The position numbers and the translations under genes are program-made. The notes under the pieces are model-generated. The model was not told where the DNA came from and ran no database searches. It worked only from the letters and a program-made list of their open reading frames with translations. This document shows, one piece after another, positions 5,515-51,123 of a DNA stretch of 51,123 nt. The DNA lies in assembly GCA_001816915.1 (NCBI GenBank), contig MHCL01000023.1, positions 1-51,123 on the forward strand. Reading direction: 5' to 3'. The stretch is from Candidatus Chisholmbacteria bacterium RIFCSPLOWO2_01_FULL_49_14. GTDB taxonomy: Bacteria > Patescibacteriota > Microgenomatia > UBA1400 > Chisholmbacteraceae. Each line of letters begins with the position of its first letter. Position 1 is the stretch's first letter.

Positions 5515-6780
5515 CTACTTGTTCTTGGGGGTGAGTTTGTCTTTTCCGACGTAGCCGCGAAGCAGGCTGGGAACGATGATTGAACCGTCCTTTTGCTGGT
5601 AGTTTTCCAGAATCGCGCCCAGCACGCGGGGAGTAGCGATGACCGTGTTATTCAAGGTATAGACGAATTTGGTTTCCCCCTGATGGGTGCGGTAGCGCAT
5701 GTTCAAACGCCGGGATTGGAAATCGTAAAAGAAGCTGTCCGAGTGGGTTTCGCGATATTTGTTCTGCGCAGGAAACCAAGTTTCGATGTCATACTTTTTC
5801 ACTTGTCCGGCTCCCATGTCGCCGGTACACATCAGCACCACCTGATACGGCAGTTCGAGTTCGCGCAGGATATCTTCGGAAAAAGAGAGCATTTTTTCAT
5901 GCCAGCTTTCGCTCTCCTGCCTGTCCGCGGCATGCAGGACAACCTGTTCGACTTTGTTGAATTGATGCAGGCGGAATATCCCCCTGGTGTCCTTCCCGTA
6001 CGAGCCGACTTCCCGCCTGAAACAGGGAGAGATGCCGACCAGCTTTACCGGCAGATCCTCCTCGTTGAAGGTTTCGTTCGCGTGATATGCAGTCAGTGAT
6101 ACCTCGGCCGTGCCGATAAGCTTCTTGCCGTCCTGGGTTGAGTAATGGTCCTCGATCCCCCAGGGAAAGTAGCCGGTTCCGTAGAGCGCTTCGTCATTGA
6201 CGAGCCAGGGGACCGTCATCGGCGTAAAGCCCTGCTTCACCATATATTTGAGCGAAAAGTCCAGAAGTCCCATCTCCATGAGCACCAGCTCGTTTTTGGT
6301 GAAGAAACTCCGGAAGCCGGCGATTTTTACGCCTCGATCAAGATCAATGAGATCATGCATTTCCCCCAACGTCACGTGGTCTTTGGGTTCAAAGTTCATG
6401 GATGGCGGCGTTCCCCAGCGTCGGATGACCTGGTTTCCTGACTCATCCAAACCGACCGGAACATCCGGCGCGGGGACGGAGGGAACCTGAAGCATTAATT
6501 CGGAGAAGCCTGCTTCGGTTTTTTTGAGCTGGGGTTCGATATCTTTTAATGTCTTTTTAATCTCTCCCGCCTGCTCTTGCAGTTCTTCTGATTTTTTTAC
6601 CGCCATTTCTTTGGAGATGGCATTTCTTTCCGCCCGCAGCTGTTCGACCTTTGCCCTTAATTCACGGCGTTTGGCATCAAATCGAAGCACCTCGTCGACA
6701 ACTTTGGGGTTGAGGTTCTTGTCGCGGGCGGCTTTTCTGACTGTATCCGCGTGGTCGCGGATAAATTGGATGTCGAGCAT
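5515..6780 (-). CDS. serS: Seryl-tRNA synthetase
   Basis: 421 aa. N-terminal coiled-coil arm (MLDIQFIRD...) and a class II core (FRREVGSYGKDTRGIFRLHQF, TLNNTVIATPR). Confidence 0.95.
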   Translation of the reverse strand: MLDIQFIRDHADTVRKAARDKNLNPKVVDEVLRFDAKRRELRAKVEQLRAERNAISKEMAVKKSEELQEQAGEIKKTLKDIEPQLKKTEAGFSELMLQVPSVPAPDVPVGLDESGNQVIRRWGTPPSMNFEPKDHVTLGEMHDLIDLDRGVKIAGFRSFFTKNELVLMEMGLLDFSLKYMVKQGFTPMTVPWLVNDEALYGTGYFPWGIEDHYSTQDGKKLIGTAEVSLTAYHANETFNEEDLPVKLVGISPCFRREVGSYGKDTRGIFRLHQFNKVEQVVLHAADRQESESWHEKMLSFSEDILRELELPYQVVLMCTGDMGAGQVKKYDIETWFPAQNKYRETHSDSFFYDFQSRRLNMRYRTHQGETKFVYTLNNTVIATPRVLGAILENYQQKDGSIIVPSLLRGYVGKDKLTPKNK

Positions 6781-6904
6781 AGGGATTAGGTTATTAGCTT
6801 ACTAGGTTATTAGCGTATTAGCTTTTTAGTTTATTCGCTTGTTTGGGTTTAGGGATTAGGGATCCTGTCACCTTGATTCTTCCGGATTCTGCCTTTTCTT
6901 TCCT

Positions 6905-9251: not shown

Positions 9252-10838
9252 TTATGTTTCGCGAGTAGTCTTTAAACTTTTCTTCGATACTTCTTTAAGA
9301 CGCTTTAGTACTAACTTCCTGTTTTCTAAAAGGAACCAGGCAGCGCGGGGACCGTGGGTTTTGCCGATCAGCGCGAGGTAGATCGCTTCGAAACATTCTG
9401 CCGTCGGGATCTTCATCTTCTTTGTCCGTTCGTAGAGTGCCTGCTGCAGATCCTCCGGTTTCTTCCATTCTTCGGAGAGAAGTTCTTCAACATATGCCAA
9501 GAATTCTTTTTGTTCCAGAGACAACCTGTCGGCGGCTTTCGAGATCGAAGTTGTCAGCGAAAAAACCTGTTCTTCGGGAGCATATTGAGCGAGCCAAATT
9601 TTCGCGTATTTAACTCTTTCTTCCAGAACGCGGCGCTCTTCCCCGGTGAATTTGGATCCTTTTAATTTGGAGAACCTCTCTTCCGCATCGATTCCCGGGT
9701 GCTGAATGATGGAGGCGATTTCACGGAAACGCGGCAGAAAATGATTTTTGGAGGGACTGCCTTTCACCTGTGAAATTTCATAGATTCTTGCCAGTCTTTT
9801 ATCCTTTTTCTGCCAGAATGCACGCGCCGCATGATCATATTCGTCGAACAGATCAGGTATCGTCATGCCTGCCGGATCAAAATTGATCGCCCGATTGTAT
9901 TTCACCCGAGCGATCATGAAACGGATGAGATACGGCGGCAGGATTTCCGAGACTTCTTTGGCGCTGGAACCCAAGCCTTTTGATGAGCTCATCTTTCTAC
10001 CACCCACTAGAAAGAACTCATGCGAGAAGGGAAAAGGAACCGGATAATGAATGACCCGCTCACAGATCAACCTTGCCACGTCGTGTGAACCGCCCGCAGT
10101 CATGTGATCTTTGCCCGCGCCTTCGACGGTGACACCGATGACTTTCCATTTACACGCCCACTCAATCTTCCAAGGCAGTTTGCCGCTGCCGTTAAACGGC
10201 GAAACCTGGCCGTGATGCCCGCAGCCTTCTGTCCAGACGACCGCATGTGGGTTGCACTCGTAACTTACCTGTTCACCGTCCCAGCCTGTAACGACGGTCG
10301 TCGATAGCTTGCCGCATTGTTCACACGCCACGCTGAACGGAAACCAATTCTCCGGTTTGCCTTTTTTATAGATCGTTTTATAGATTGTTCTGATGGCTTC
10401 TGCCTGATCCAAGCAGGTTTTAATCGAGTCGTTCATTTTTCCCGAACGATAGAGCTGTGATCCCCAGATGATTTCCGGATGAACGTCCAGGCTGTTGAAG
10501 ATTTCTATATATTCCTGCCCCCAGCGCTGGCCATATGAGTCGTAGCCTTTTTCCGGCGAAGGAATTTGATAGAGCGGCTTGCCGAGATGCTGTCTATATT
10601 CCTTCTCGTCCAAGTAAGTAGGAAGCGAGTCCATGGGGTCATGATCGTCGAGCACATAGCTGAAGGTAACATCCTTTTTGCGATCTTTGAGTGCACGGCA
10701 GATGAGTTCATGGGTGAGCACCGCTCGTACAGAACCGATATGCACGCGCCCCGACGGGGTCTTCATGTCATCGACCCAGTAGGGTTTGTATTTCCCTGAT
10801 GTGATGATTTGATTTGCTAACTCGTCCGCCCAGTACAT
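9252..10838 (-). CDS. lysK: Lysyl-tRNA synthetase, class I
   Basis: N-terminus MYWADELA..., PSGRVHIGSVR (HIGH-like) and KMSSSKG (KMSKS) motifs. Architecture is that of class I LysRS. The start is taken at Met18 of the track ORF. Confidence 0.9.
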   Translation of the reverse strand: MYWADELANQIITSGKYKPYWVDDMKTPSGRVHIGSVRAVLTHELICRALKDRKKDVTFSYVLDDHDPMDSLPTYLDEKEYRQHLGKPLYQIPSPEKGYDSYGQRWGQEYIEIFNSLDVHPEIIWGSQLYRSGKMNDSIKTCLDQAEAIRTIYKTIYKKGKPENWFPFSVACEQCGKLSTTVVTGWDGEQVSYECNPHAVVWTEGCGHHGQVSPFNGSGKLPWKIEWACKWKVIGVTVEGAGKDHMTAGGSHDVARLICERVIHYPVPFPFSHEFFLVGGRKMSSSKGLGSSAKEVSEILPPYLIRFMIARVKYNRAINFDPAGMTIPDLFDEYDHAARAFWQKKDKRLARIYEISQVKGSPSKNHFLPRFREIASIIQHPGIDAEERFSKLKGSKFTGEERRVLEERVKYAKIWLAQYAPEEQVFSLTTSISKAADRLSLEQKEFLAYVEELLSEEWKKPEDLQQALYERTKKMKIPTAECFEAIYLALIGKTHGPRAAWFLLENRKLVLKRLKEVSKKSLKTTRET

Positions 10839-10975
10839 TTTATTTATAGTATTCCTTCCGGTAAGTATAGCAAAGCCTGCCCCACACATTTTCTCGAAAG
10901 TCGGCTAACTGCTTATTCAGCCGTATCCTCCTTCGAAAAATGTTGAGGGGTTATGTATTATTAGATTGTCTAAAG

Positions 10976-15142: not shown

Positions 15143-15184
15143 CGATGTTATAGCTAGTTAGCTTTTTAGGTTATTTGAATATTT

Positions 15185-16364: not shown

Positions 16365-17654
16365 TTAAGTCCATTTAATCTTGAGGAAGTGGGTGGCACA
16401 TGAGATGCAGGGGTCGTAGGCGCGGACGAACTTCTCGATCTCAAAGGAAATCTGCTCTTTCTCTTTATCAAGGTTTCCTTCAACGACGCCGACTAAATTC
16501 TTCTCCATGCTGATTTGGTTTTGGCCGGTGGGGACGACGATATCAGCCGAGACGACTTTGAGGTCTTTCACTTCCAACCGATGATAAAGAAGGCCTCTCG
16601 GCGCTTCGATGACTCCGACGCCGATGCCGTCTGACTGCGCTGCGGCAACCGGAACTTCGGGCGGAAATTCTTTGCGGTTTTCAAGCAATTCCAGGCTTTC
16701 GTCGATGCAGTGGAGGATCTCAATCGCTTGGGCCAGGTTGTTATGGAAGACATTTTTGGAAGGGAACTTCTCCAACGCCTGCCCGGCATCCCGCCTTGTG
16801 TTCGGATGCAGAAGGTGTTTTGACAGGTTGATACGAGCCAGCGCGCCGACCATGTAGGCATCTCCTTTGAATTTATAACCGGAGGCTTGCGAATAGGGAA
16901 TCACCGTGTGCTCCAGGTGCTCTCTTAACTGCGATTCGGGCATCACCTCTCCCGACGAGGTTGCGACGTCGCCATCAAGGAAGTTGTAATCCCGAGCTTT
17001 GAGCGCGACGAAGGTCGTTTCATCCAGAAATTCAAACGGGCAATCCGAAAAAACCTTCACCAGCCTTACGGCTGCCGGCCGGGCTTCCCTGAGAAGCTTT
17101 AGGGATTTTTCGATTTCTTCCCTTTGCGGAAACTGCGTAAATCCCCCGATCGTCGGATAGGGGGCGTGCACGCTTCTGCCGCCGAAGGCAATGCTCAATT
17201 GATTTCCCGAAGCTTTGACCGTGAAGGTGTCGTGAAGGAGCTGATGCTCAACCTCGTTACTCTCATCAAACTCGAGTATCGAGTCCTTTCCCAAAACATC
17301 CGGCAGTGAAAAGACATAGAGATGAAGGCCGTGATCGCGAATCATCAGGCCGTTGGTGACGAGCCTGCGCATGAGTTTTGTTTGCTCGGATGGTGTGATG
17401 CCGATCGCTTTCTCGACGGACTGTATGGAACAAAGAAGATGGGCATTGGAGCAGGTGCCGCAGATACGCGCCAAGAGCTGGGGTACGCCGGCAATCGGTT
17501 TTCCCCTGATTGCTTGGGTGTAGAAGCGTTTATAGTCGGAGAGCGAAAGTTTGAGATCCTCAACTTTTCCATCCCGGACTTTAACCTGCATGCCGGCCGT
17601 ACCCTCAATTTTGGAGATCTCTTCAACGGTAAGATCGAAACTGCCTTGATGCAT
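16365..17654 (-). CDS. [NiFe] hydrogenase large subunit (group 3-like)
   Basis: N-terminal RICGTCSNAH (RxCGxCxxxH) and C-terminal DPCISCATH (DPCxxCxxH) nickel-binding motifs, with a short extension after the His as a protease substrate. 429 aa. Confidence 0.9.
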   Translation of the reverse strand: MHQGSFDLTVEEISKIEGTAGMQVKVRDGKVEDLKLSLSDYKRFYTQAIRGKPIAGVPQLLARICGTCSNAHLLCSIQSVEKAIGITPSEQTKLMRRLVTNGLMIRDHGLHLYVFSLPDVLGKDSILEFDESNEVEHQLLHDTFTVKASGNQLSIAFGGRSVHAPYPTIGGFTQFPQREEIEKSLKLLREARPAAVRLVKVFSDCPFEFLDETTFVALKARDYNFLDGDVATSSGEVMPESQLREHLEHTVIPYSQASGYKFKGDAYMVGALARINLSKHLLHPNTRRDAGQALEKFPSKNVFHNNLAQAIEILHCIDESLELLENRKEFPPEVPVAAAQSDGIGVGVIEAPRGLLYHRLEVKDLKVVSADIVVPTGQNQISMEKNLVGVVEGNLDKEKEQISFEIEKFVRAYDPCISCATHFLKIKWT

Positions 17655-17727
17655 AGTTCAGTGGTAAAGATTAAGTGGTAAGTCAAGGAAATATGCTTCA
17701 ATCATATTTAGACTCTCCACTTATTCT

Positions 17728-18237
17728 TTATTCCTTACTCCTTCTTTCGATTCCGAATTCTTTGAGCATTTGGTCCAACACTTCCAGGAATTTTTCGGTA
17801 TCCATCGGGCAGCCGGGAACGATGGCATCAACCGGGACGACTTCATCAAGCTTTAAAACTTTGTCTGCATAGCGGAAGCGGTCAAGGATCGGTTGAATTT
17901 CCTCCTTGGTAGCTTGGTCAAAAAGGTTTCGTTGTGCGGAGGGAAATCCGGTGACGGCGCAGGAACCGATGGCGACCAACTTTTTGGAGACGGAGCGGAT
18001 TTTTTTGAGCTTCTCTGCCTGTAGGACACTGGAGATCGCCCCTTCCACGAAGGCCACATCGAGGGAATCGAGGCTGTTTTTTGTCTTGAGCACTTTGGCG
18101 TGCCGAATGTCCAGAAGTTCCTTCCACTCAAAGAAGTGATCATTCATAAGCTCCGTCATCATGATTGTCGAGTCTTCGCAACAGGTGAAAGAGAACCAGC
18201 CGATTCGAAGCTTTTTTTTCGCTTGCGCTTTTGCCAT
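17728..18237 (-). CDS. [NiFe] hydrogenase small subunit, short form (proximal cluster domain only)
   Basis: RIGWFSFTCCEDS, VAFVEGAISS, AIGSCAVTG and VPGCP align by eye with the N-terminal half of group 3 small (delta) subunits. The start is taken at MAKAQAKKK (ATG 18237). Confidence 0.85.
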   Translation of the reverse strand: MAKAQAKKKLRIGWFSFTCCEDSTIMMTELMNDHFFEWKELLDIRHAKVLKTKNSLDSLDVAFVEGAISSVLQAEKLKKIRSVSKKLVAIGSCAVTGFPSAQRNLFDQATKEEIQPILDRFRYADKVLKLDEVVPVDAIVPGCPMDTEKFLEVLDQMLKEFGIERRSKE

Positions 18238-18244
18238 GTCGGAA

Positions 18245-18475
18245 TTACGAGCTCTTACGGGATTTGAGAAACCCGAATTTGTGTTTGGCAATGAGGAAGA
18301 TGTAAATGATGTCTAAGATGCCGATGGTCTGGACGAGCAGAAGCAGAACAAACCAAATTTTTTCTTCCCTTCTGGCTGCGGTCCACAGCGCCAATCCTTT
18401 CCAGGGAATGCTCCAGAGTTGAAGCAGTAAAAACAGCCAGGGGTACTGGGTAAAGAATTGCTCAAGGCTATCCAT
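18245..18475 (-). CDS. Small two-TM membrane protein
   Basis: 76 aa with two hydrophobic helices. Its ATG shares one base with the TAA of the upstream gene (TAATG). Confidence 0.5.
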   Translation of the reverse strand: MDSLEQFFTQYPWLFLLLQLWSIPWKGLALWTAARREEKIWFVLLLLVQTIGILDIIYIFLIAKHKFGFLKSRKSS

Positions 18476-20740: not shown

Positions 20741-21349
20741 CTATTTCATCGCGTCTGCAAACCGTTTTTCCACTTCCAGCCAATTGACGACATTCCACCA
20801 AGCGGTAACGTAATCGGCCCGGCGATTCTGATATTTCAGGTAGTAGGCGTGTTCCCACACGTCAAGTCCCAGGATCGGCGTTTTTCCTTCGCTGACGGGT
20901 GAATCCTGATTCGGCGTGTCACCGATAACCAACTTTGCGTCGTCAACGACGAGCCATGCCCAACCGCTTCCGAATCTTCCCAAAGCCGACTGGGTGAACT
21001 TTTCCTTGAATGTCTCAACGCTGCCGAAAGCGCCGATCAGCGCCTTCAATAACTTGCCTTCCGGCTGGCTCCCCTGGCTTGGACCTAGAACCATCCAAAA
21101 CAACGAATGGTTGGCGTGACCGCCTCCGTTATTGCGTACTTTGGTACGAATATCTTCGGGAATTGTATCGAGATCTTTCAGGAGTTTATTGATATCCGTA
21201 CGCAACAGATCTTCATGGCCTTCGAGAATAGCATTGAGATTTGAGACATATCCCGCATGATGTTTGTCATGATGGATATGCATGGTCTGTTCATCGATAT
21301 GCGGCTCAAGCGCCGAATAATCATAGGGTAAATCTGGAAGAGTAAACAT
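20741..21349 (-). CDS. Fe/Mn superoxide dismutase
   Basis: [31 protein letters not shown] and DVWEHAYYL signatures. Confidence 0.95.
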
Positions 21350-21434
21350 ATTCTCACCTCCCCTCCCAGTTAGATAACGCGAAGCGAATCTAACGGGATC
21401 CCGTGAGATGCCCTCGGGCTATCTCACTGGGACC
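21350..21434 (-). promoter_or_regulatory. Structured 5' leader, copy A (two hairpins plus SD)
   Basis: The minus-strand RNA reads GUGAGAU-A-GCCC-GA-GGGC-AUCUCAC (21403-27), then GUUAGAU...AUCUAAC (21365-97), then UGGGAGGGGAGGUGAGAAUAUG. It has the same architecture as 25536-25656. Confidence 0.5.
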
Positions 21435-21539
21435 TTTCTCTTATTTTCTTTTTCCATCGCGTCTGCATTGTAGTGCAGACTTCTCAACTCCACAAGAGCG
21501 CATTTATACTTTAGAGTACGATGAGTTTATAATTCCGGT

Positions 21540-23626: not shown

Positions 23627-23752
23627 AGCAATAGGGTTATTATAACGGGATGGTTGTCCACCTCAACAGCGGAGTTTTATGTCAAATAGCCCAGGGCAAA
23701 GCGAAGCTTTAACCTGGGCTTTATGTACCGATAAATACCATGGGAATGAAGA

Positions 23753-24321: not shown

Positions 24322-24954
24322 TTAATGGGTTGTGTGATATGGGAGTTCGGCGGCGACAGTGGTTTCCAGGCCATGACCGCAGTAAAGGATTGTTTTCTCG
24401 GGAAGCCGCAGTATTCTTTCTATAGAGATATCGAGTTCCCTCTGGTTGCTGTAGGAGAAATCTGTTCGACCGACGCCTCCGCCGGCGAAGAGGAGATCGC
24501 CGACCCAAACAAACCCTGCTTTTTTGTCATAGAGGCTGATGCTGCCTGGTGTGTGGCCCGGGGTTTCGATGATCTCTATTCGAGATTTACCGACATTTAG
24601 CTTGCTGCCTTTTTCGAGATTTGCGCTGATCCTGGGTGACGGACCCGCCTTTACCCCGATAAAGTGCTCGGCTGTTTCATTCATGCGTTTAATGAGAAAT
24701 TCGTCTTTTTGGTGAATGAGAAAGGGGATGTTGTAGGCCAGCTGAAGTTCGGCTGCGGCCATGATGTGGTCGAAGTGGCCGTGGGTGGCGATGATCTGTG
24801 TCGGGGTAACTTTCTCGTCGGCGATAACCCTTGTAATATAGTCTGCGTCGTCGCCGGGATCGATGATGGACGCTTCTTTCTTTTCTGAATCAAAGATCAG
24901 ATAGCAGTTGGCCTGCAGCTGACCGACGACAATGGTTTTAACTCTTAGGCTCAT
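24322..24954 (-). CDS. MBL-fold metallo-hydrolase (glyoxalase II-like)
   Basis: ATHGHFDH zinc motif, followed by TPGHTPG and GDLLF. Confidence 0.85.
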   Translation of the reverse strand: MSLRVKTIVVGQLQANCYLIFDSEKKEASIIDPGDDADYITRVIADEKVTPTQIIATHGHFDHIMAAAELQLAYNIPFLIHQKDEFLIKRMNETAEHFIGVKAGPSPRISANLEKGSKLNVGKSRIEIIETPGHTPGSISLYDKKAGFVWVGDLLFAGGGVGRTDFSYSNQRELDISIERILRLPEKTILYCGHGLETTVAAELPYHTTH

Positions 24955-25535
24955 TCCTCCGCACCCAAATCGATACTGATGGTCATGGACGAACCGTCTT
25001 CCGTTTCGGTGATGGCAATCACGCCGCTTTGCTCACCATTTTCGAAACTCAGGACTGCGGCGTTTGATAAACTTGATTCTTCCGTAATTTTCCAACCCGC
25101 TTCAATCAGATTCTTTTTATAATAGTCGGCGATCGCGGTAAAAGAATCTTGGCTGGTGAGCGACAGCGATATGACTTGCGCGCTTGAGGCGCTGGTTTCG
25201 ATTTCGGATCCGGGATATAAAGGGATATTATCGGGAAAATTTTCCGGAACTTCCTGCTTCCCGGCGGTAAAGGTGCCTTCCTCCGTCTTCACTGTGACTT
25301 CCTCTCCCTCACCGGAAATGTCGACATCCGCACCTGTTGACTGCTCAATGGCCTTCTCCGCGACTTGCTGGGCTACTTTGGAACCAGCAAGCCCGATCAG
25401 TTTGGTCGCGGCAAAAGACAAGAGGAGAATACCAATTACCACCGAAACCAGGATGATTAAGGTGTTCCCACTCTTTTTCCGGCCGGCTTCAATTTTTACT
25501 TCCTCTTTGATCTGCTCTTTTTCTTCTTCCGGCAT
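24951..25535 (-). CDS. Hypothetical N-terminally anchored protein
   Basis: The start is taken at MPEEEKEQ (ATG 25535), which is preceded by GGAGGUGAGAAUA. There is one TM followed by an acidic Ser/Thr-rich domain. Confidence 0.55.
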   Translation of the reverse strand: MPEEEKEQIKEEVKIEAGRKKSGNTLIILVSVVIGILLLSFAATKLIGLAGSKVAQQVAEKAIEQSTGADVDISGEGEEVTVKTEEGTFTAGKQEVPENFPDNIPLYPGSEIETSASSAQVISLSLTSQDSFTAIADYYKKNLIEAGWKITEESSLSNAAVLSFENGEQSGVIAITETEDGSSMTISIDLGAEE

Positions 25536-25656
25536 TATTCTCACCTCCTCCCAGTGAAGTAACGCTTCGCGTACTTCACGGGATCCCGTGAGATACATAG
25601 TTATCTCACCGTGACCCAATCCCCGTGAGATGCCCGACGGGCTAACTCACCGGGAC
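25536..25656 (-). promoter_or_regulatory. Structured 5' leader, copy B (three hairpins plus SD)
   Basis: Hairpins at 25621-54, 25586-611 and 25550-82, then UGGGAGGAGGUGAGAAUAAUG. It is related to 21350-21434 and shows compensatory stem changes. Confidence 0.5.
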
Positions 25657-25770
25657 ATATTGTCAAACCTTGAGGCATTCTAACACAATTTTCACACCTG
25701 ATGCGTTCATCAAAATACGATAAGTTCAGCGGGATTTGTTCTCAAGTTTGCGCTACACTACTCTTGCCGT

Positions 25771-35146: not shown

Positions 35147-35220
35147 TGCGGGGTCGTCTAATGGTAGGACACATCCCTCTGGAGGATGGTATCGGGGTTC
35201 GAATCCCTGCCCCGCAGCCA
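35147..35220 (+). tRNA. tRNA-Gln (anticodon CUG), CCA encoded
   Basis: Hand-folded 74-nt cloverleaf: U1-A72 acceptor pair, discriminator G73, CATCC-CTCTGGA-GGATG anticodon arm, CGGGG-TTCGAAT-CCCTG T arm. Confidence 0.9.
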
Positions 35221-36780
35221 AGCAGGACGGGAAGCGTTTGAAACTCCTGTTTTACCCTGTACACCCATCCATTTTGTAGGTTCGAAAATCCTTTCTTCTT
35301 TTTCGGCAGCTTTCAGCTGTTTCGAACGGTTCGTCAGGTTTACTGCCTCGTACAACAGTTTAAATGCCGGTGTGTACTGGTAGTCCAGAATACCTGCACG
35401 GATCTTGAGGTTATTGAATACAAAGCGTATGAACTGCCGCTTCTGGGCAAGCTCGGCTTTCCGATAAAGTTCTTTGGCTCGCTGTGAGAGGTCGTAGATA
35501 TTCAGACCGAGCCGGTAATACTTGGTATTCGCCGTTTCGTGGCGTTTGATGGTTGTAAGTAGCGTCTCTTTCTCTTCGGTATATTGCTCGAATTTCCTCT
35601 CGTAGAACTCCTTGGGAATTCGTTCATCAAGTTTATCGTCGTAGAGCTTGTCCAACCGGTTCTGAACACGCTCAAGCTGCTCCTGCAATTGCTTCAGAGA
35701 AGATGAATGATGTGCTATCTCGTCTTTATGGCTTTCTTTCAAAGCTTTCCTTATCCATTCGACAAGCCTCGGGCTTCGCAACTGGAGATTCTGGAAGCCT
35801 TCAACCAGCTGCTCTTCGACTTTCGGTTCTTTAACCCAAGTCTTGTCGGAACAGGCCCTGTATCCGTTGCAGTGTCCGTAGACATGTCTCTTCTGCACTT
35901 CCCAGGTGATCAGTCCTCCGCACTCTCCGCAGCGGATCAGGCTCTTAAACAGGAACATATGCTTCCGGTATTTCGGGGTCGTCTTGCTGACGAGAAGCTG
36001 TTGAACCCTGTCAAACAGTTCGTCGCTCACCAGTGGCTCGTGAGATCCGGGATACAGTTTTCCGTTCCAGAAGATCTTTCCTTTATAGAACGGGTTGGTT
36101 AAAATCCTGTGCGTGTTGCTCCTGACAATATTACCTCCGACGCTGTTCGTCAGACCCATTTCCAGAACCTTCTTTGTCACTTCCGTCAATGAATATTCAC
36201 CGGAAGCGTAGAGTTCGAAGAGTTTTTTGATTAGCGGTGCTTTCTCTTCGTCAACAACGTGGACTTTGTGCCCCGCTTCCCCTACCGTTTTGTATCCGGG
36301 CGGCGGTTTGGTCGGCAGCCAACCCTGGGCTATCTTCTCAACCTGCCCTTTCTTCACCTCTTCGCTTAAGTTGTCGATGTAGTTCTTGGCGAAGATGATC
36401 CGGATACCCCAGTTGAACTTTTCCTGTGAGCGGGAGTTTTGGTGAAGCACAAGCGAGTCCTTTACGAGATGCACCTGACGTTCTGCATCTTCCTCCAGCC
36501 ATTCATCAATCAGGACAGCATCTTTGAAGTTCCGCGTCAGCCTATCTACTTTTTCACAGACGATGATCTTGAGATTGCGTTTTTGCAGGTATTTCAACAT
36601 CTCTGAAAACACAGCTCGTTGTCTCCTTCCGCTCGCGGATTCGGAAATGGAGAAGGTTTTCGCTACGGTGAAGTTGTTCTTCTCCGCATAAGATCTCAAA
36701 AGCTTTTCCTGTGCCGGAAGGGAATATCCCGTTTCTTCCTGTTCTCTTGATGATACTCTTGCAAAAAGTACTGCTTTCAT
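35158..36780 (-). CDS. Large serine recombinase (integrase)
   Basis: N-terminal resolvase domain (AVLFARVSSREQ catalytic Ser, VCEKVDRLTRN), a recombinase domain, the zinc ribbon CGECGG...HCNGYRAC and a coiled-coil. The last 21 codons are antisense to tRNA-Gln. Confidence 0.9.
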   Translation of the reverse strand: MKAVLFARVSSREQEETGYSLPAQEKLLRSYAEKNNFTVAKTFSISESASGRRQRAVFSEMLKYLQKRNLKIIVCEKVDRLTRNFKDAVLIDEWLEEDAERQVHLVKDSLVLHQNSRSQEKFNWGIRIIFAKNYIDNLSEEVKKGQVEKIAQGWLPTKPPPGYKTVGEAGHKVHVVDEEKAPLIKKLFELYASGEYSLTEVTKKVLEMGLTNSVGGNIVRSNTHRILTNPFYKGKIFWNGKLYPGSHEPLVSDELFDRVQQLLVSKTTPKYRKHMFLFKSLIRCGECGGLITWEVQKRHVYGHCNGYRACSDKTWVKEPKVEEQLVEGFQNLQLRSPRLVEWIRKALKESHKDEIAHHSSSLKQLQEQLERVQNRLDKLYDDKLDERIPKEFYERKFEQYTEEKETLLTTIKRHETANTKYYRLGLNIYDLSQRAKELYRKAELAQKRQFIRFVFNNLKIRAGILDYQYTPAFKLLYEAVNLTNRSKQLKAAEKEERIFEPTKWMGVQGKTGVSNASRPAWLRGRDSNPDTILQRDVSYH

Positions 36781-37018
36781 AACTTCAATGCCCTCACTGG
36801 TGTGCTCAGACCTGTTAGAGTCTGTCCAATGAGGGCATTAAAAACTCCAACAGGTTTTCTGAGCACGATCTTATTATCAACTCTTCTCTGGATTATTTCA
36901 ACTCTAAACGTAATAGTTACAATTCTTTACTGCATAACAACATTACGGTATTTCTCTTTAACTTCAATATTCCATACCAGATCATTACTAGTAATGTTAC
37001 TGTATTACTACATAGTGA

Positions 37019-37306
37019 CTATATTTGATTTGTATATTCTCTAGCTTTATCTACTATCATTTTCTGTAAACGAAGCCAAAGGTTGGGATCTCGAAAGCGC
37101 ACCACCCAAAAATATTTTCCGTTCCTTCCTTTCACACTTGGAGGGCCGACCACCCATACCGGATTATGAGGAGAGCCTTTTGTCGTGGTGTATCTAGCCA
37201 TGAATCCTCGGATTTCAATTACCCCAGACACCACAGCGTTTGCGATAACAACGTTGCTCTTGGGGTCGTATTTCTTAATATGAATTTCAATATCTTCTAT
37301 ATTCAT
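37019..37306 (-). CDS. Hypothetical protein (possibly a SpoVG-like fold)
   Basis: 95 aa. There is loose resemblance to SpoVG (alternating beta pattern, GFMAR...VWVVGPPS...RFRDP...IVDKAREY). No search was done. Confidence 0.45.
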   Translation of the reverse strand: MNIEDIEIHIKKYDPKSNVVIANAVVSGVIEIRGFMARYTTTKGSPHNPVWVVGPPSVKGRNGKYFWVVRFRDPNLWLRLQKMIVDKAREYTNQI

Positions 37307-37307
37307 G

Positions 37308-37556
37308 TCAATTATCAGTGAAAATTAAATGTTTCAACGTTCGAATCGCGTCCGCGTATTCCTTGGCATTGACATCAACCGTCTTTGAGAAGAACTGTTG
37401 CTGAAGCGATTCACAAAGATGGCGATCGCTGAATACGAACCAACAGATTTTGTATTCGCGATTTACTCTTTCCAGCCGCACCCCTTTGGCATAAAGAAGT
37501 GCTGAGAGACTGAGATCTTTGGAGAAGAAGAAGTCGTTGTTACTATCCATAATCAA
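37308..37556 (-). CDS. Hypothetical protein, DUF5659-like
   Basis: 82 aa. LSALLYAKGVRLERV...WFVFSD...DAIRTLKHLIF matches my recollection of DUF5659. It is a paralogue of 39377-39628. Confidence 0.5.
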   Translation of the reverse strand: MIMDSNNDFFFSKDLSLSALLYAKGVRLERVNREYKICWFVFSDRHLCESLQQQFFSKTVDVNAKEYADAIRTLKHLIFTDN

Positions 37557-37590
37557 TCATTCTCTTTCTATCTCATCTGAGAAAAAAACT

Positions 37591-37815
37591 TCACGATTCT
37601 GCCTGGTAATATCCAGGATTTTTCTTTTTCAGTTCTCTTATGATGGTGTATAGCCCTTTTAGCCTTTTTGGTCGTAGATTCCAGAGAGGACATCCAGTGA
37701 TTTGGCATCGCAAGACTTCTTTTGCCTGACAACAGACGCAGTCGAGGCATTTCATGGCTATCGCCTTATTCAGGTTTTTGATTTCTCTCCGGAGATTGAG
37801 TTTGTTAGTTCTCAT
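37591..37815 (-). CDS. Small Cys-rich protein
   Basis: 74 aa. KCLDCVCCQ...LRCQITGCPLW contains six Cys and suggests a Zn-binding module. Confidence 0.5.
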   Translation of the reverse strand: MRTNKLNLRREIKNLNKAIAMKCLDCVCCQAKEVLRCQITGCPLWNLRPKRLKGLYTIIRELKKKNPGYYQAES

Positions 37816-37836
37816 CGTTGATTTGCCTCTGAAAAT

Positions 37837-38007
37837 TCAAGATCGTCTCATTTTGTCCTTGTGGCTACTTGAATCAATTTCCTCCAGGAGCCCGAAAAAG
37901 CCGATCAGATTATTAGCCACTTCCAATATAATTCTCGGCTTAAGCTTCAGCCCATATTCTTCTTCTAAAATTATCTTGAGCTCTGCTTTAATCTGTTCAC
38001 TGATCAT
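37837..38007 (-). CDS. Possible 56-aa ORF, below the track cutoff
   Basis: Hand-translated as MISEQIKAELKIILEEEYGLKLKPRIILEVANNLIGFFGLLEEIDSSSHKDKMRRS. It lies on the same strand as the surrounding operon. Confidence 0.3.
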   Translation of the reverse strand: MISEQIKAELKIILEEEYGLKLKPRIILEVANNLIGFFGLLEEIDSSSHKDKMRRS

Positions 38008-38087
38008 GAGATTTCGTGAGGCTCTTTGTTTTCGGTGATACCGATGTCCTTCGAGGCTGCTTGGATCTATCTCTGTGAGCTAGGATC

Positions 38088-38424
38088 TCACCCAATACAA
38101 AAACCACCCTCATCACAGAACTTGCTAAAATCTTCAATGTATTTGCACCACTCTTCATCTTTCTCCTTTTTGACTTCAGGTAGTGCTTTTTTTTAAAGCT
38201 TTTGAGAGATTTCTTGTGTCTTGATCTGTAACAACTTGCCAGTGGTTAGAAAAATAATCACCTTCCCACCTTTTTTCTGAAACTCAAAGTTTTTTGAAAA
38301 TTTCTCTGTATGGCTTTGTCCCTTCCGGTTCCCAGCCATGTTCGTATGCTAGATTGAGTACATAACTCCATCCAAACCTGTTAAATCTGAAAGCTCCCCC
38401 TTTTCCTCTCAAATCCATTCCCAT
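38088..38424 (-). pseudogene. Fragmented gene (one frameshift plus one in-frame TAA)
   Basis: An AAGGAG SD precedes the ATG at 38424, giving MGMDLRGKGGAFRFNRFGWSYVLNLAYEHGWEPEGTKPYREIFKKL, which stops at 38284. The reading continues in another frame (FEFQKKGGKVIIFLTTGKLLQIKTQEISQKL), passes a TAA at 38193-95, and continues KKALPEVKKEKDEEWCKYIEDFSKFCDEGGFCIG to 38088. Confidence 0.45.
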
Positions 38425-38456
38425 ATGTCTTAACTCCTTTCTGAGTACATTCTTAT

Positions 38457-38843
38457 TTATTCATTATCTGTGTATGGATACTTGAATTTTTCGAAATTCT
38501 CCTTTTCTAGTGAATGTAGTTTTTTTATTGGTATCGTCAGATAAATCGTTTTGTCTTCAACAACAACGCCTGACTCGTTGATAAGTTCATCAAATAAGAT
38601 CCATCCAACCAGCTGAAGTCGTCTCTCAGCCAGAGAGTAAATTGAAAAGATGTATACGTCTATGCCGAAATCATGTTATGCCAAATCCAATGCGACTAAA
38701 TTTTCTGGATTACTGTTCCATAGGTTGCAACTGCCTGTCCTAGATCGAAGATTCAGCTTATGCTTGGGGGATACCAGAACATTTGGACCATTTACCATAT
38801 TTTTAAACTCTGTGTAATCGTTTCTGATATCAAATTTAGTCAT
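38457..38843 (-). pseudogene. 128-codon gene interrupted by an in-frame TAA
   Basis: The ATG at 38843 overlaps the TGA of the upstream gene (ATGA). After 55 codons there is a TAA (38676-78), followed by 72 further in-frame sense codons with no Met (HDFGIDVYIFSIYSLAERRLQLVGWILFDEL...). Confidence 0.5.
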
Positions 38844-39343
38844 TTATCCTTTCTACTAATGATTGCACCTACGTCCGATTGCTCAACTCCTTTTTCGTAA
38901 TGAAGTTCAACCTTTTCTTTTTTTGAACCTTTTTTAATGGGTTTAGTAGAGCGTAATCTATCTACTATTCTTCCAAGCGCATGAAGCCTCTCCTGGTCAT
39001 TTTTAAAGCACGCATCCATGATTTCCGCTCTCTCTACGGCGATACGTGTTGTTTTAGCCAACCCAAAATTCATGTCTAAAATACGAAGATCAAGGCATAA
39101 TGGGATTTCATCTCTATCAATGAAAAGGACTTCCATCCATGCGTGTCTGAAGGTAACGCATCCCTCCTTCTTTTGCCCTATGTATTTGACCCGCAACTTT
39201 AGGCTGGCCAAATCTCTAGAGAAGTTACTGCGATATATTCTCTCTGTAATCTTCCAACCTCTTTCTTTAATTTCTTCTTCAAATGTTTTGAGCAATACTG
39301 ATTGATAAAATCTGTATAGTTCTTTAAATTGATGGTTGTTCAT
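38840..39343 (-). CDS. Hypothetical protein
   Basis: 167-aa ORF in the island operon. No motif recognised. Confidence 0.55.
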   Translation of the reverse strand: MNNHQFKELYRFYQSVLLKTFEEEIKERGWKITERIYRSNFSRDLASLKLRVKYIGQKKEGCVTFRHAWMEVLFIDRDEIPLCLDLRILDMNFGLAKTTRIAVERAEIMDACFKNDQERLHALGRIVDRLRSTKPIKKGSKKEKVELHYEKGVEQSDVGAIISRKDK

Positions 39344-39376
39344 ACTTGCGAAGAGTTATTAAGATGGTTACGCTTC

Positions 39377-39628
39377 TTACCCTCTGCTTGTAACCTCGTA
39401 GACTTTATGTCTGAAAGTATCTACTGCGTCCAAGAGATCTTTGGGCTGAACAAGGGGAGCTTGCCTACTCAGAAACGAGTTAACTAATTGCAGGCATTTC
39501 TCGAGTGGAGAGAATTGGAAGTAGATGATTGAGTTCTCTACTCTTGTCCCTAGGAACTTTATGTTGGGTTGAATCAGAAGAAACGGGCAAATTTGCCTAT
39601 CTTTACTCTCATATCTTGTTTGGTCCAT
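39377..39628 (-). CDS. Hypothetical protein, DUF5659-like paralogue
   Basis: It shares the pattern F-x-F-S-(D/P)...C..L...F.S....V..K...DA..T.(K/R)H.(I/V)(F/Y) with 37308-37556. Confidence 0.45.
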   Translation of the reverse strand: MDQTRYESKDRQICPFLLIQPNIKFLGTRVENSIIYFQFSPLEKCLQLVNSFLSRQAPLVQPKDLLDAVDTFRHKVYEVTSRG

Positions 39629-39713
39629 AGAGCTTCTCCATTACTTCATCTTTCCTTAGTCTATAGACGGAAATCAGATTTGAAAAAACCCAATAGAACA
39701 GCGGTTTGATGGG

Positions 39714-40574
39714 TTAGTTAGAGGTGTCCGTGAAAAGTTGCATGAAGCGTTTTATTTCTCTGCTCGATTTGTTTTGTTCAAAACCCCAAAGACCTTTGTC
39801 TTTCATCCACTTTATTGTGTCTTTATGTGTTAATCCCATATGCTTTTTTAGAACGAAGTAAAAATATCTATTCAAAAACGTCTCCTCGTCTTGTCTGTTA
39901 GCATCAAAATAGTTTGGAAACTTCTTCTGAATCTGCTTTAACATATTTGGCCAGCCTCTCTTTCCAGTGTTGGCTAAACTTGTGTGAGAATAGATCTTTA
40001 TCTCTAAGTAGGGTTCTAATGTATTAGGTTCTACTTGTATACTCATCCTCGGTGGTTGTTTTCTAAAAAGAACAAATCCAGGTGTAATTTCCTCGTATAA
40101 CACATAGTTCTTAATCGCTTTGTGCCAGATCGCGTTTAACTTTTTTAATTTGATCAATCGCAGCCTTCCAATTTCTCGCAAAATTGTCTTAAGTTTCTTG
40201 CTCTCCCAAGAGTTAATCTTTTTCTCAATCGCGTGTAGTTTGTCTGAAGCATTCAAATCGGGAAATAACTTCCCTCTCGCGAATTCCCGGGATACAGTAA
40301 AGTATCTATTGCATGCATTCTTACCTATCGCCTTCATTAAGTCCCTTTTCATTTGTTCCGGTTTGATCTGATACTTCAACCTAATGCCCTCGACCTCTCT
40401 ATTAAACTCTGGGATAAATCGCAATATATCTGCTATTGGCAACCAATAAGGCTTTTCGTGACCACCTTGCTTTTTAGGATTATTCTTTCGATCATCCAAG
40501 TAATCCAGTAGAAAACCTAAGTCGTACTCTCTCCGAAGAATAGCATCAATTTTTTCTTCATCTTCATCTTTCAT
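39714..40574 (-). CDS. Hypothetical protein (286 aa, basic)
   Basis: Long ORF at the head of the minus-strand island operon. No motif recognised. Confidence 0.55.
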   Translation of the reverse strand: MKDEDEEKIDAILRREYDLGFLLDYLDDRKNNPKKQGGHEKPYWLPIADILRFIPEFNREVEGIRLKYQIKPEQMKRDLMKAIGKNACNRYFTVSREFARGKLFPDLNASDKLHAIEKKINSWESKKLKTILREIGRLRLIKLKKLNAIWHKAIKNYVLYEEITPGFVLFRKQPPRMSIQVEPNTLEPYLEIKIYSHTSLANTGKRGWPNMLKQIQKKFPNYFDANRQDEETFLNRYFYFVLKKHMGLTHKDTIKWMKDKGLWGFEQNKSSREIKRFMQLFTDTSN

Positions 40575-40786
40575 ATTTTGATCTGTATTTTAACTGATTT
40601 GGTAAAATATAGATGAAAAGTGAATAATGCCTAAACCTTCCGGTATTTAACCGTCTGGCATGGCACAAAAACCTTGTGAGGAATAAGCTCCTCGTCAGAG
40701 CACCTCACAAGGTCATATCTCAAAAGGGGTATGGGTGGCGCAAGCCATCGCTGGCGGGGAGCTTCGTGTTCTCCAGCCTAATCGCA

Positions 40787-41491
40787 ATGACTATGAAGTG
40801 CCAACATTGCAAAGGAGAAATAAGTTCAAAATCTGAATATTGTTCTCACTGTGGTCAGAAATTGAAAGGCAAATATGATTCCCAAAATCCTAAAATAAAC
40901 CTTCTGGTGTTTACCGTCTTATCTTTTCTAAGTGGAGGGATTTATTTCCCTATCTGGTTTTGGCGAAGGCACTCTTTCTTTGGATACGACACTGATCAAC
41001 ACCGATTACCAATACTCAATAAATGGTTTTTGGTTGCAGCAATGTTGATTCTAATGGCTACTACTGTAATTGGGGGATGGTATAGTGCTAATTTAAGGAT
41101 TTTTGAACATGAGTTTAAAGAGCAAGCTCTTGAACATATTAGGGCAGGGGAAGATATTTTATCGGTATATAAAGACGACTCTGAACTACTAAATAAGCGA
41201 ATCTCCTTAGAAGGCAATATTCTCCTCACGGGAATAGTTAAGGGAATAATTGGTATGTTTTTGATTTATCAAGCTTTCATTGCTAGGAATGTTATTAATG
41301 TATATCTAAAGGAGGCATATCAAAAACAGATTTCTAGATGGGTGTGGATAACATCTGGCTTTTGCTTTTATATTATTTTTACGCTCGTAGGAAGCTCCAC
41401 TGATGGACTTCTGTGGTCTAATTTTCCTTTAATATTCTGGATGCAATACAAAATAAACCGCCTTTCTGAGAAAAATAATCGGAGAAGATAG
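40787..41491 (+). CDS. Zinc-ribbon plus DUF4234-like membrane protein
   Basis: MTMKCQHCKGEISSKSEYCSHCGQKL zinc ribbon, followed by TM segments with GGIYFPIWFWRR (the DUF4234-type GIY..W motif). The upstream part of the track ORF lies within a hairpin. Confidence 0.55.
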   Translation: MTMKCQHCKGEISSKSEYCSHCGQKLKGKYDSQNPKINLLVFTVLSFLSGGIYFPIWFWRRHSFFGYDTDQHRLPILNKWFLVAAMLILMATTVIGGWYSANLRIFEHEFKEQALEHIRAGEDILSVYKDDSELLNKRISLEGNILLTGIVKGIIGMFLIYQAFIARNVINVYLKEAYQKQISRWVWITSGFCFYIIFTLVGSSTDGLLWSNFPLIFWMQYKINRLSEKNNRRR

Positions 41492-41520
41492 GTCAGATTA
41501 CTAACAAGAATAGTAATAAA

Positions 41521-41709
41521 ATGAAGAAACAGAAACCAATTATATTTCTAGGAGAGAAATTAGACCCAGAGTATTACCCTATCCTGTACGAGAAGGCGAA
41601 GAAACATCCCGAAGAGTTGAAGCGCCAGCTCCTCAGCCTCGCGAAACTCCCCGGCGGGAGCATCCGGTCAGCGAAACAGGCGCTGGAAAGCGACCTCCAG
41701 CATGGATAG
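41521..41709 (+). CDS. Hypothetical small protein
   Basis: 62-aa ORF. Its 3' half is conspicuously more GC-rich than its neighbours. Confidence 0.35.
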   Translation: MKKQKPIIFLGEKLDPEYYPILYEKAKKHPEELKRQLLSLAKLPGGSIRSAKQALESDLQHG

Positions 41710-41736
41710 CTGAGTACCCATATTCTCCTGGGCTGC

Positions 41737-41994
41737 CTATTGGGCTGAAGAGCCGGCGGTTCTGGCTTGAGGTTCAGAGAACTGCGTCAGGTAAATAACC
41801 ATACCGCCGTTCTTACTTACTTCTTCGTTCTCCTTCTCAATCTGACTCGCTTCAGCTTCACTAAGGAAGTAGCCTTCCCCATCAATAAGCCTGCCATCCT
41901 GGGTTATGTGACGAACAACCTCAACATACTTATCTTTATTCCGCGCCTTGTCGAATTTGCTCTCCAGTTGTCTCAGTCTGACTTTGGTTGTCAT
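41737..41994 (-). CDS. Hypothetical protein
   Basis: 85 aa. Its ATG overlaps the TGA of the upstream gene (ATGA at 41991-94). Confidence 0.45.
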   Translation of the reverse strand: MTTKVRLRQLESKFDKARNKDKYVEVVRHITQDGRLIDGEGYFLSEAEASQIEKENEEVSKNGGMVIYLTQFSEPQARTAGSSAQ

Positions 41995-42356
41995 ACTTTT
42001 GCCTGATCCAGTCGTTTCTCTAGTTCCTCAACTCGTGTCTCCAACTCGCTCTTGTCATAAGCATCCAAGAAAGTCTTTGCCAGGTAGCCCAGTGATCCGG
42101 CGGGATTGTTGGCAGGCATCTTGCCGGTCCAGAGGCTGTTGAGTGCTTTCTCCATCAGTCTTTTTATATCTTCCGGTGTGTCCAGCTTCATTCTTCTGCC
42201 GAGCTGGTGATACTGCCTTTTGGCTTTTCCGCCATCAGAGGAGGCACTGAGAGCCTGCTCACGGGTCTCCTGATCATGTCGGAAGCAATACACACCTCCG
42301 TGCATAGCGTTAGCCTGGCATTGTGCGCCGTTTGATTTTATTGCCTTACATTTCAT
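41991..42356 (-). CDS. Hypothetical protein with an N-terminal Cys/His motif
   Basis: The N-terminus MKCKAIKSNGAQCQANAMHGGVYCFRH has a C..K..G.QC...A..G..YC..H pattern common in phage and plasmid small proteins. Confidence 0.5.
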   Translation of the reverse strand: MKCKAIKSNGAQCQANAMHGGVYCFRHDQETREQALSASSDGGKAKRQYHQLGRRMKLDTPEDIKRLMEKALNSLWTGKMPANNPAGSLGYLAKTFLDAYDKSELETRVEELEKRLDQAKV

Positions 42357-42591
42357 AACTAAGTTACCCCCATACAGAGAAGCATCTTCTGACTCGATTA
42401 TCTCACACTTTATACCTCGAGATAAATATTTATTGGTGTCTTGTAGCCTTCCTCTCGATTATCAATCAGTCCTGAGGTAAAATATGGGGAGAATGTATAC
42501 GCAGAATAAATCAATCATTGATAACGACAAGATTAAACTCTTTTCCGAACTAAAAAGCTATGAAGAACGATGATTTAATGAGATAAATACT

Positions 42592-45582: not shown

Positions 45583-45584
45583 AT

Positions 45585-48053: not shown

Positions 48054-48209
48054 GGTTACTTTGGTGGTATTAAATACTCAAGTGTTAAGGGTTCGAAAGC
48101 TATTAAAAATAAAGAATACGAAAGACAAATTAACCAATTAGTTTATAAACTCTACGGCCTCACGCCGGAGGAGATAGCAGTTGTCGAAGGGAAAAATGAA
48201 AATAATTGA
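48054..48209 (+). pseudogene. In-frame post-stop extension of mod carrying a methyltransferase C-terminal tail motif
   Basis: Reading on in the mod frame past its TAA gives GYFGGIKYSSVKGSKAIKNKEYERQINQLVYKLYGLTPEEIAVVEGKNENN then a stop. The (V)Y.LYGLT.EEI..VE tail is a recurrent C-terminus of large R-M and BREX-type methyltransferases. Confidence 0.5.
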
Positions 48210-48699: not shown

Positions 48700-48715
48700 A
48701 AAAGCTCAAAACAGA

Positions 48716-49678: not shown

Positions 49679-49679
49679 T

Positions 49680-50291: not shown

Positions 50292-50292
50292 T

Positions 50293-51072: not shown

Positions 51073-51123
51073 AGTGGATCACAGAGATTATCTGATAAAT
51101 AAGAATGATAAATATACTTGAAA

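Follow-up and report, generated by a model that had tools for sequence, protein, structure and literature searches.

A twin-hairpin leader of a superoxide dismutase gene as a probable copy of a portable cassette in Microgenomates-group CPR bacteria

The 5' leader of a superoxide dismutase (SOD) gene in Candidatus Chisholmbacteria bacterium RIFCSPLOWO2_01_FULL_49_14 contains two hairpins directly upstream of a strong Shine-Dalgarno (SD) sequence, which raises the question whether it is a regulatory switch of this gene or an element of wider distribution. The stretch of DNA that was analyzed, 51,123 nucleotides of contig MHCL01000023.1, is referred to here as the window. To our knowledge, almost nothing is known about the control of gene expression in CPR bacteria. 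Sequence comparisons point to the leader being a copy of a portable twin-hairpin cassette with a strong SD immediately on its 3' side, which appears to be common in Microgenomates-group CPR bacteria. The twin most likely serves as a structural leader that acts constitutively rather than as a switch that senses stress; this reading is favored because the twin fronts the ribosome binding sites of many unrelated genes.

Two structured leaders in the window

The SOD locus comprises the following elements.

20741..21349, minus strand: coding sequence of an Fe/Mn superoxide dismutase (Pfam Sod_Fe_N E=9e-31, Sod_Fe_C E=1e-41)
21347..21364, minus strand: purine run, SD GGAGGTGA (21361..21354) and SOD start codon ATG (21349..21347)
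21397..21365, minus strand: hairpin B, SD-proximal unit, CCC-GTTAGAT-t-CGC-ttc-GCG-tt-ATCTAAC-t-GGG
21431..21400, minus strand: hairpin A, distal unit, CCC-a-GTGAGAT-a-GCCC-ga-GGGC-ATCTCAC-GGG
21350..21453, minus strand: SOD 5' UTR segment with purine-rich run, twin hairpin and SD, up to the start codon
21464..21505, minus strand: putative SOD promoter block, 42 nt

Hairpin A, with the apical stem GCCC-ga-GGGC, is predicted to fold with -19.0 kcal/mol when taken alone, and hairpin B with -13.4 kcal/mol. An AT dinucleotide separates the two, and the terminal GGG of hairpin B abuts the SD region, where the sequence reads AGGGGAGGTGAGAATATG. The SD begins 3-4 nt past the last pair of hairpin B and thus lies outside both hairpins. 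From the terminal GGG to the start codon the distance is 15 nt, the same as the median of the family described below. By eye, the reverse complement of hairpin B, CCCAGTTAGATAACGCGAAGCGAATCTAACGGG, aligns with CCCAGTGAGATAGCCCGAGGGCATCTCACGGG of hairpin A, with the bulged base on the same side; hairpin B is an inverted copy of an A-type unit. The two palindromic units stand head-to-head, joined by GGGATCCC, and the whole twin is an architectural palindrome. The SOD leader was compared in 10 assemblies that represent population variants, and the hairpins were without any difference. An identical SOD gene is present in Rifle aquifer assemblies.

The promoter block reads AAATGCGCTCTTGTGGAGTTGAGAAGTCTGCACTACAATGCA. 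A -35 element TTGTGG at 21495..21490 and, after a 17-nt spacer, a -10 element TACAAT at 21472..21467 were proposed by eye; a simple promoter scanner did not flag these hexamers. Transcription would be expected to start near 21460. In one variant (L004, 1270-1280, corresponding to about 21473-21478 of the window) a 5-nt deletion, CTGCA, lies between the proposed elements and would cut the spacer from 17 to 12 nt.

The first-pass annotation had reported that the leader is shared with an unrelated gene 4 kb away, and the same order of elements, plus one extra hairpin, was indeed found there.

24951..25535, minus strand: gene of a 194-aa membrane protein (precomputed family PF27226), which comes first behind the second leader
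25533..25549, minus strand: start codon ATG and SD GGAGGTGA (25548..25541) of the membrane-protein gene
25582..25550, minus strand: hairpin B', SD-proximal, arms GTGAAGT/ACTTCAC, apical CGC-gaa-GCG, separated by AT from A''
25613..25585, minus strand: hairpin A'', distal unit of the second twin, GTGAGAT-aactatgt-ATCTCAC
25654..25622, minus strand: extra single hairpin A', CCCgGTGAG..CTCACGGGG, with an apex of the GCCC/GGGC type (25.2 bits as a lone unit)
25536-25654, minus strand: second leader as a whole
25677..25685, minus strand: proposed extended -10 element TGtTAGAAT, which aligns with the SOD -10 and is conserved in the relative L186

The sequence 3' of hairpin B' is AGGAGGTGAGAATAATG. 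The hairpins were confirmed in both leaders as they had been described, by sequence and by folding: the SOD leader was predicted to fold with -42.4 kcal/mol (z = -3.6 against shuffles) and the second leader with -67.6 kcal/mol (z = -4.9). In both, transcription is inferred to start about 15-30 nt upstream of the first hairpin. The two leaders form repeat family D4 (79% over 48 nt). Pairing is preserved between B and B' with different bases (U-A to G-C, G-C to A-U, A-U to G-C), also as annotated. These are recurrent repeat subtypes and not private compensatory mutations; GTGAAGT arms were found in L047, in L101 and in 25 metagenome copies.

Within the window, ATCTCACGGG occurred 8 times with at most one mismatch, compared with 2.8 expected, and two of the three occurrences of the strong SD GGAGGTGA in 51 kb belong to these leaders. 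A covariance model (R1) was built from alignment A3, which holds 36 start-adjacent twins of relatives. It recovered the SOD leader and the second leader on the sense strand with 90.7 and 80.5 bits, and its third match was the lone hairpin A'; no other window site was detected at E<0.01. Scores on the sense strand were 33-41 bits above antisense at the window sites, and the whole window holds five hairpin units. Opening of the SD was calculated to cost 4-5 kcal/mol with the twin, compared with 7.4 kcal/mol in the hairpin-less leader of the relative L044. Rfam 15 returned no family at the hairpins of the window or at 18 related loci, and for both leaders this held at gathering score and at E<=10, in agreement with the earlier statement that the leader matches no named riboswitch.

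Downstream of the membrane-protein gene, the same strand encodes an MBL hydrolase, a Nudix hydrolase, a peroxiredoxin, a UPF0047 protein and an SDR. The peroxiredoxin gene has a promoter-like site directly upstream (23639-23666, minus strand; TTGAGG, 16 nt, TATAAT; 10/12 matches), so the genes behind the second leader may belong to more than one operon.

Several other features of the window were recorded. The SecA protein showed 62% identity to Candidatus Chisholmbacteria, 61% to Beckwithbacteria and 64% to the 'Microgenomates group'. At 9252-10889 and 16365-18291 the window encodes a lysyl-tRNA synthetase of class I and both subunits, large and small, of a NiFe hydrogenase; genomes of Microgenomates-type CPR typically have these. 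The 8-nt unit TAGNTTAT is repeated head-to-tail about seven times at 6787-6844, just upstream of the seryl-tRNA synthetase gene (5515-6780, minus strand), with a related copy at 15151-15184; Rfam gave no family at the array. The block 35147-51123 is probably an integrated mobile element. It starts from a tRNA-Gln gene (35147-35220, plus strand) and a large serine recombinase (35158-36780, minus strand) and holds a LOOT RNA (40628-40749, plus strand, 85.8 bits), a type III restriction-modification pair (42592-45582 and 45585-48053) and several ORFs without a family.

Relatives of the leaders and distribution of the hairpins

The history of the SOD leader was approached through its relatives. 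In the closest one found, L044, the SOD is 90% identical, the gene order is the same and the 42-nt promoter block is identical. Past this block the L044 leader is unrelated, lacks the hairpins and has a different SD. In the relative L186 (DNA 88-94% identical), the twin precedes the gene of the membrane protein, which is 96% identical. This leader of L186 matches the SOD leader of the window with 87% over 108 nt, and the match takes in the purine-rich 5' flank and GGGAGGGGAGGTGAGAATA. The comparisons with L044 and L186 show that the SOD 5' UTR, between about 21453 and the ATG, was transplanted as a copy of an ancestral form of the neighboring gene's leader. The transplantation is recent and replaced an older 5' UTR without hairpins. 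The second leader was later remodeled in the window by gain of A', which is not present in L186, and by a swap of B for a unit of the GTGAAGT type. The B' region of the second leader recurs elsewhere, with 55 identical nt upstream of a different gene in L223 and 98% identity over 55 nt in L207. Orthologs of the membrane protein in L042 and L043 (49% and 40% identity) have the SD GGGAGGAGGTGAGAA or GGGGGGTGAGAAT and no hairpins. The twin is dispensable, since it is absent from these orthologs and from the SOD gene of a close relative.

A metagenome scan with the junction AYYTMACGGGNTCCCGTKARRT yielded 75 stretches at 65 unique sites, 56 of which were true twins, mostly from Rifle and Hainich groundwater. 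In these groundwater CPR bacteria, two unlike units stand head-to-head across the junction GGGAYCCC, giving a twin of about 70 nt. A start codon was present on exactly one side of 43 of the 56 twins (77%); about 13 had no adjacent start, a few of them truncated at the end of a contig. The gap between the terminal GGG and the start codon was narrowly distributed (median 15 nt, sd 3.1, range 9-23), compared with the gap to the upstream gene (median 58, sd 247). The 3' flank has the form (U)GGG(G)GAGGUGAUA...AUG, and the purine-rich 5' flank has an invariant G at its end. Where a twin lies in an operon, the upstream reading frame frequently terminates within the first hairpin, on the UGA in GUGAGAU or on the UAG in GAUAG.

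The genes behind the twins are of many kinds. They encode EF-Ts (five genomes), the ribosomal proteins S11, L7/L12, S21, L14, S3, L2 and S14, an RRM protein, TatA, SOD, a short-chain dehydrogenase, several membrane proteins and an 84-aa protein (three genomes), with confirmation from Pfam; genes at related loci are crude longest-ORF calls, and taxon labels are those of the records. The twin was kept at orthologous sites upstream of EF-Ts (58-87% protein identity), the 84-aa protein (65-71%) and S21 (43%), and orthologous twins often differ in arm types. The orientation of the twins relative to the gene was not random. Pairs of same-type units were found in 0 of 56, compared with about 12 expected under random pairing, as estimated from arm frequencies. 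Units with xxAAGT arms were SD-proximal in 20 cases and distal in 2 (p = 1e-4), and the order GAGAT distal with TAGAT proximal occurred in 13 twins, compared with 4 for the reverse.

Among species-representative genomes, strong twins were found in the Patescibacteria L047, L096 and L107 and also in L101, whose Gammaproteobacteria label is possibly a binning error. In L096 the best -10 element abuts the first hairpin, so part of this hairpin may not be transcribed. In L208 (2837-2938; also L212 and L232) a twin lies about 25 nt downstream of the 3' end of a 16S rRNA gene; use of the motif thus extends to the neighborhood of rRNA, where it may have a part in processing or termination. A Chisholmbacteria-like genome in one 253-kb contig carries at least three near-identical twins with GCTCT-rich flanks and no adjacent starts (L165:12667-12762, L165:13611-13706 and L217:890-952; also L047:864-959), which look like recently multiplied copies.

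The single hairpin has a much wider distribution. A scan for CCCGTKAGATN{6,16}ATCTMACNGGG with one genome per species gave at least 119 stretches, compared with about 48 for random sequence by our own arithmetic. Each hairpin is a unit of a large family of palindromic intergenic repeats of about 35-45 nt in at least 12 phyla. The hosts include Patescibacteria, Omnitrophota, Planctomycetota, WOR-3, Elusimicrobia, Cloacimonadota, Nitrospirota, Ignavibacteria, an Aenigmatarchaeote and others. Among the matches listed, several units occurred within the same genome, and 108 of 128 units had a fourth C-G pair or more beyond the pattern. Covariation extends to a further outer stem (TTCAC/GTGAA, TTTAC/GTAAA, CTTGC/GCAAG). 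Small apical stems, GCGAAGC among them, are frequent, and the arm-to-arm distance is 6 to 16 nt.

The single units listed were mostly intergenic (52 between co-directional, 13 between convergent and 13 between divergent genes), and their orientation relative to genes was unbiased (15 compared with 18). No recurrent neighboring gene, such as a transposase, was present at the 128 sites listed. Flanking direct repeats of at least 6 nt, as signs of target duplication, were seen at 5 of 121 sites listed, compared with 2 of 118 in an offset control. Of the 128 units listed, 22 had a T-run resembling a terminator, and 8 (6%) were start-adjacent. The first-pass annotation had named a match to a REP- or MITE-like element unrelated to gene starts as grounds against its own reading; this description holds for the single unit and fails for the start-anchored twin.

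In an Omnitrophota genome (L075:4303-4330), a single unit lies between two ATP synthase genes, delta and alpha by eye, which shows that the unit has an intercistronic use in bacteria other than CPR. In L075 and L145, the genes that lie between paired hairpins encode ATP-synthase subunits and unrelated proteins, one of which was read by eye as HNH/AP2-type. A scan of viral contigs gave 31 matches, about the number expected by chance by rough arithmetic, except for one contig with three copies. This contig of viral class, UViG_3300044799_000709 (IMG/VR), carries three single hairpins ACCCCGTGAGATA...TATCTCACGGGGT (L019:317-352, L037:5167-5199 and L037:8375-8410), one next to a tRNA gene. No match to the leader was obtained by BLAST in phage and plasmid collections, and searches of the literature, both by sequence string and by topic, turned up no description of the element.

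Covariation and the selected form of the twin

The annotation had proposed a covariance model and a scan of relatives; these gave many further copies and strong covariation for both hairpins. In alignment A3, 97.8% of the cells were paired in the two-hairpin structure, compared with 30-41% in slid controls. Thirteen pairs change on both sides, in 128 cells, and 0 of 500 shuffles reached this value. Both hairpins are conserved structures, strongly supported by covariation. All conserved positions of the twin in A3 sit in helices, and a conserved unpaired core is absent. The partner arms and the apical stems were free of the search pattern, and copies were retained if the arms paired with at most one mismatch. 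Both scans searched for exact patterns taken from the window, so that sequence conservation is overestimated and divergent members are underrepresented. In divergent twins found by the model, even the basal CCC/GGG stem covaries, for example as CAC/GTG or CCAC/GTGG.

The pairing data were also examined for the nature of the selected molecule. An RNA helix under selection on the sense strand normally tolerates G-U far better than A-C. Of 997 scored cells in A3, with one outer pair excluded, 969 were Watson-Crick, 5 were G-U and 9 were A-C. As G-U was no commoner than A-C, the counts carry no RNA signature and do not distinguish RNA from DNA as the selected form; they are compatible with a DNA palindrome that is kept perfect by copying. 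In contrast, the fixed start spacing and the orientation bias link the twin to the strand that is expressed. Descent could also account for both if copying takes in the whole cassette with its SD, for which the transplanted SOD leader is a precedent.

A proposed constitutive leader and the competing explanations

The twin, fused to a strong ribosome binding site, recurs before highly expressed genes and can move as a cassette. We hold with about even confidence that it is transcribed and acts constitutively, holding back RNA decay and insulating the SD so that it stays free. It would be co-transcribed within the 5' UTR or intercistronic RNA. Two very stable helices near the ribosome binding site (-13 to -19 kcal/mol each) would block exonucleases and decay that depends on the 5' end, and they would stop the SD from pairing with upstream RNA. 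The outcome would be steady high expression with no signal sensed. Copies probably spread when leaders recombine, the SD serving as the homology anchor on the 3' side. The aprE leader and the cryIIIA Stab-SD of B. subtilis and the ompA 5' UTR of E. coli combine a stable hairpin with a strong SD on highly expressed genes and are constitutive. The twin resembles them in its stable hairpins upstream of a very strong SD, and in the proposed role it would also resemble REPs that stabilize mRNA. In contrast to these single-gene features, it is a repeated cassette with conserved sequence, and its 5'-terminal position is putative. Because the twin is a perfect architectural palindrome, selection on DNA or unselected copying fits equally well.

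It is possible, though not probable, that the twin is a selfish or neutral DNA palindrome of the REP/REPIN type with no use for expression, and that its position at the ribosome binding site is a target or homology preference. Such palindromes would spread by a dedicated single-strand transposase or by gene conversion, with a preference for G- or purine-rich SD regions. REPs of Proteobacteria and other phyla are short imperfect palindromes with stems of 5-13 bp and loops of 2-20 nt that occur in many intergenic copies, often head-to-head and preferably as heterodimers, and are co-transcribed with neighboring genes (PMC3733652). They are defined by a conserved unpaired tetranucleotide GTAG (or CGTC) at one end (PMC3733652). 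The units of the twin are likewise intergenic multi-copy palindromes as in REP, REPIN and BIME elements, in the head-to-head layout of REP dimers (PMC3733652), and all 56 twins are heterodimers. Also in favor of this explanation, single units occur in 12 phyla or more and in every intergenic context, show no bias of orientation and have no recurrent neighbor. Pairing is almost purely Watson-Crick with no G-U excess, the presence of the twin differs between close relatives, and one genome holds near-identical copies. The 3-nt loops of B and B' (TTC and GAA) resemble a hairpin-loop inversion.

Against the selfish palindrome, no gene of the Y1 (RAYT) transposase that REPs flank was present among the approximately 40 window ORFs scanned with Pfam. 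The unpaired GTAG/CGTC tag is absent; unlike in REPs, the flanks are CCC/GGG and GT[GT]AG is paired inside the stem. There was no consistent target duplication, and the twins are retained at orthologous sites at 43-87% protein identity. The orientation bias (20 compared with 2) and the very tight start spacing also argue against it. Two further traits separate the family from REPs: the same stem sequence recurs across many phyla, and the twins lie directly 5' of an SD at fixed start distance and in preferred orientation, whereas REPs lie mostly 3' of genes. Newbury et al. reportedly found in 1987 that REPs stabilize upstream mRNA. Correia elements of Neisseria, ERIC/IRU of Yersinia and BOX/RUP of Streptococcus are hairpin repeats carried on mRNA that alter processing or stability of the adjacent transcript. 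The twin is like them a repeated palindromic element in 5' UTRs. However, those elements are 100-150 bp long and species-specific, with terminal inverted repeats and target-site duplications, whereas the twin is about 70 nt long and fused to the SD. Terminal repeats of the MITE type with target-site duplication were not found at the hairpin units.

A rather unlikely explanation is that the twin is an undescribed, lineage-wide cis-acting RNA module of the CPR (Microgenomates) that is read by the ribosome or a dedicated factor in translation initiation on highly expressed genes. The module would be a structured enhancer of the ribosome binding site or a processing signal, a movable cassette recruited from the cross-phylum hairpin repeats.

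We consider it clearly improbable that the twin is bound by a trans-acting factor with sequence specificity that co-ordinates genes of the translation apparatus and a few others; such a factor could be a protein that binds RNA, a nuclease or a protein that binds DNA. The basal stem CCC-a-GUKARRU / AYYUMAC-GGG is conserved far beyond the needs of stability while the apical stems vary freely, just three stem positions covary to give a few fixed arm types in preferred order, and one twin precedes the gene of an RRM protein, all of which would suit such a factor. However, no candidate protein was found, and the arm distance of 6-16 nt speaks against a classical dimeric DNA operator. The arm conservation comes in part from the search patterns, and divergent copies change the basal stem.

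The translational switch proposed in the first-pass annotation, in which AUCUCAC leaves its hairpin and pairs with GUGAGA of the SD region under oxidative or metal stress, is very unlikely and is contradicted by the family alignment. A 6-bp pairing UCUCAC:GUGAGA is formally possible in both window leaders, and antioxidant genes follow both, the SOD gene directly and the peroxiredoxin gene 2 kb downstream of the second. But the forced alternative fold costs +13.7 kcal/mol in the SOD leader and +5.5 kcal/mol in the second leader. Nor does the family conserve GUGAGA downstream of the SD. In most copies this part reads GGAGGUGAUA, the complement of the 16S tail as at the 16S gene end in L208, and some have a weak A-rich SD; GUGAGA is no more than the last part of an extended SD. 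Conserved unpaired nucleotides that could form a ligand pocket are absent. Because the twin precedes EF-Ts, ribosomal-protein (S3, S11, S14, S21, L2, L14, L7/L12) and RRM-protein genes, a link to oxidative or metal stress is not supported, and the peroxiredoxin gene has its own promoter-like site. The twin shares with riboswitches, thermometers and ribosomal-protein leaders the 5' UTR position near the ribosome binding site and the covarying helices. In contrast to all of these, it has no conserved unpaired core, an SD that is not sequestered, no alternative fold and no tie to one gene family or pathway. RNA thermometers (ROSE, fourU) pair the SD or start in a hairpin, whereas the twin leaves the SD unpaired by its hairpins, and unlike intrinsic terminators, which have a G+C-rich hairpin and a U tract, the window copies are followed by GGGAGG.

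Further candidates were rejected. An operator of an oxidative-stress regulon was rejected because of the ribosomal-protein and EF-Ts genes and the variable arm distance. For an integron attC site, GTTAGAT/ATCTAAC fit GTTRRRY/RYYYAAC, but the arm order is inverted and the commoner GTGAGAT does not fit. A K-turn or L7Ae site would have tandem G-A pairs, and these are absent. For an extended SD that is split and brought together by folding, the match to the 16S tail averaged 8.9 nt, compared with 8.4 nt for shuffled 5' flanks, so the idea is unsupported beyond purine richness.

A conserved module of 70 nt fused to the ribosome binding sites of EF-Ts, ribosomal-protein and stress genes would offer a handle on mRNA stability and translation initiation in CPR bacteria, which are uncultured and have reduced genomes. 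The SOD case shows that a 5' UTR moved as a unit between neighboring genes. One hairpin sequence in many phyla is unusual for REP-like elements and raises the question of its recognizer. For genome annotation, the motif should be masked or modeled, as it will otherwise be reported repeatedly as a gene-specific riboswitch candidate.
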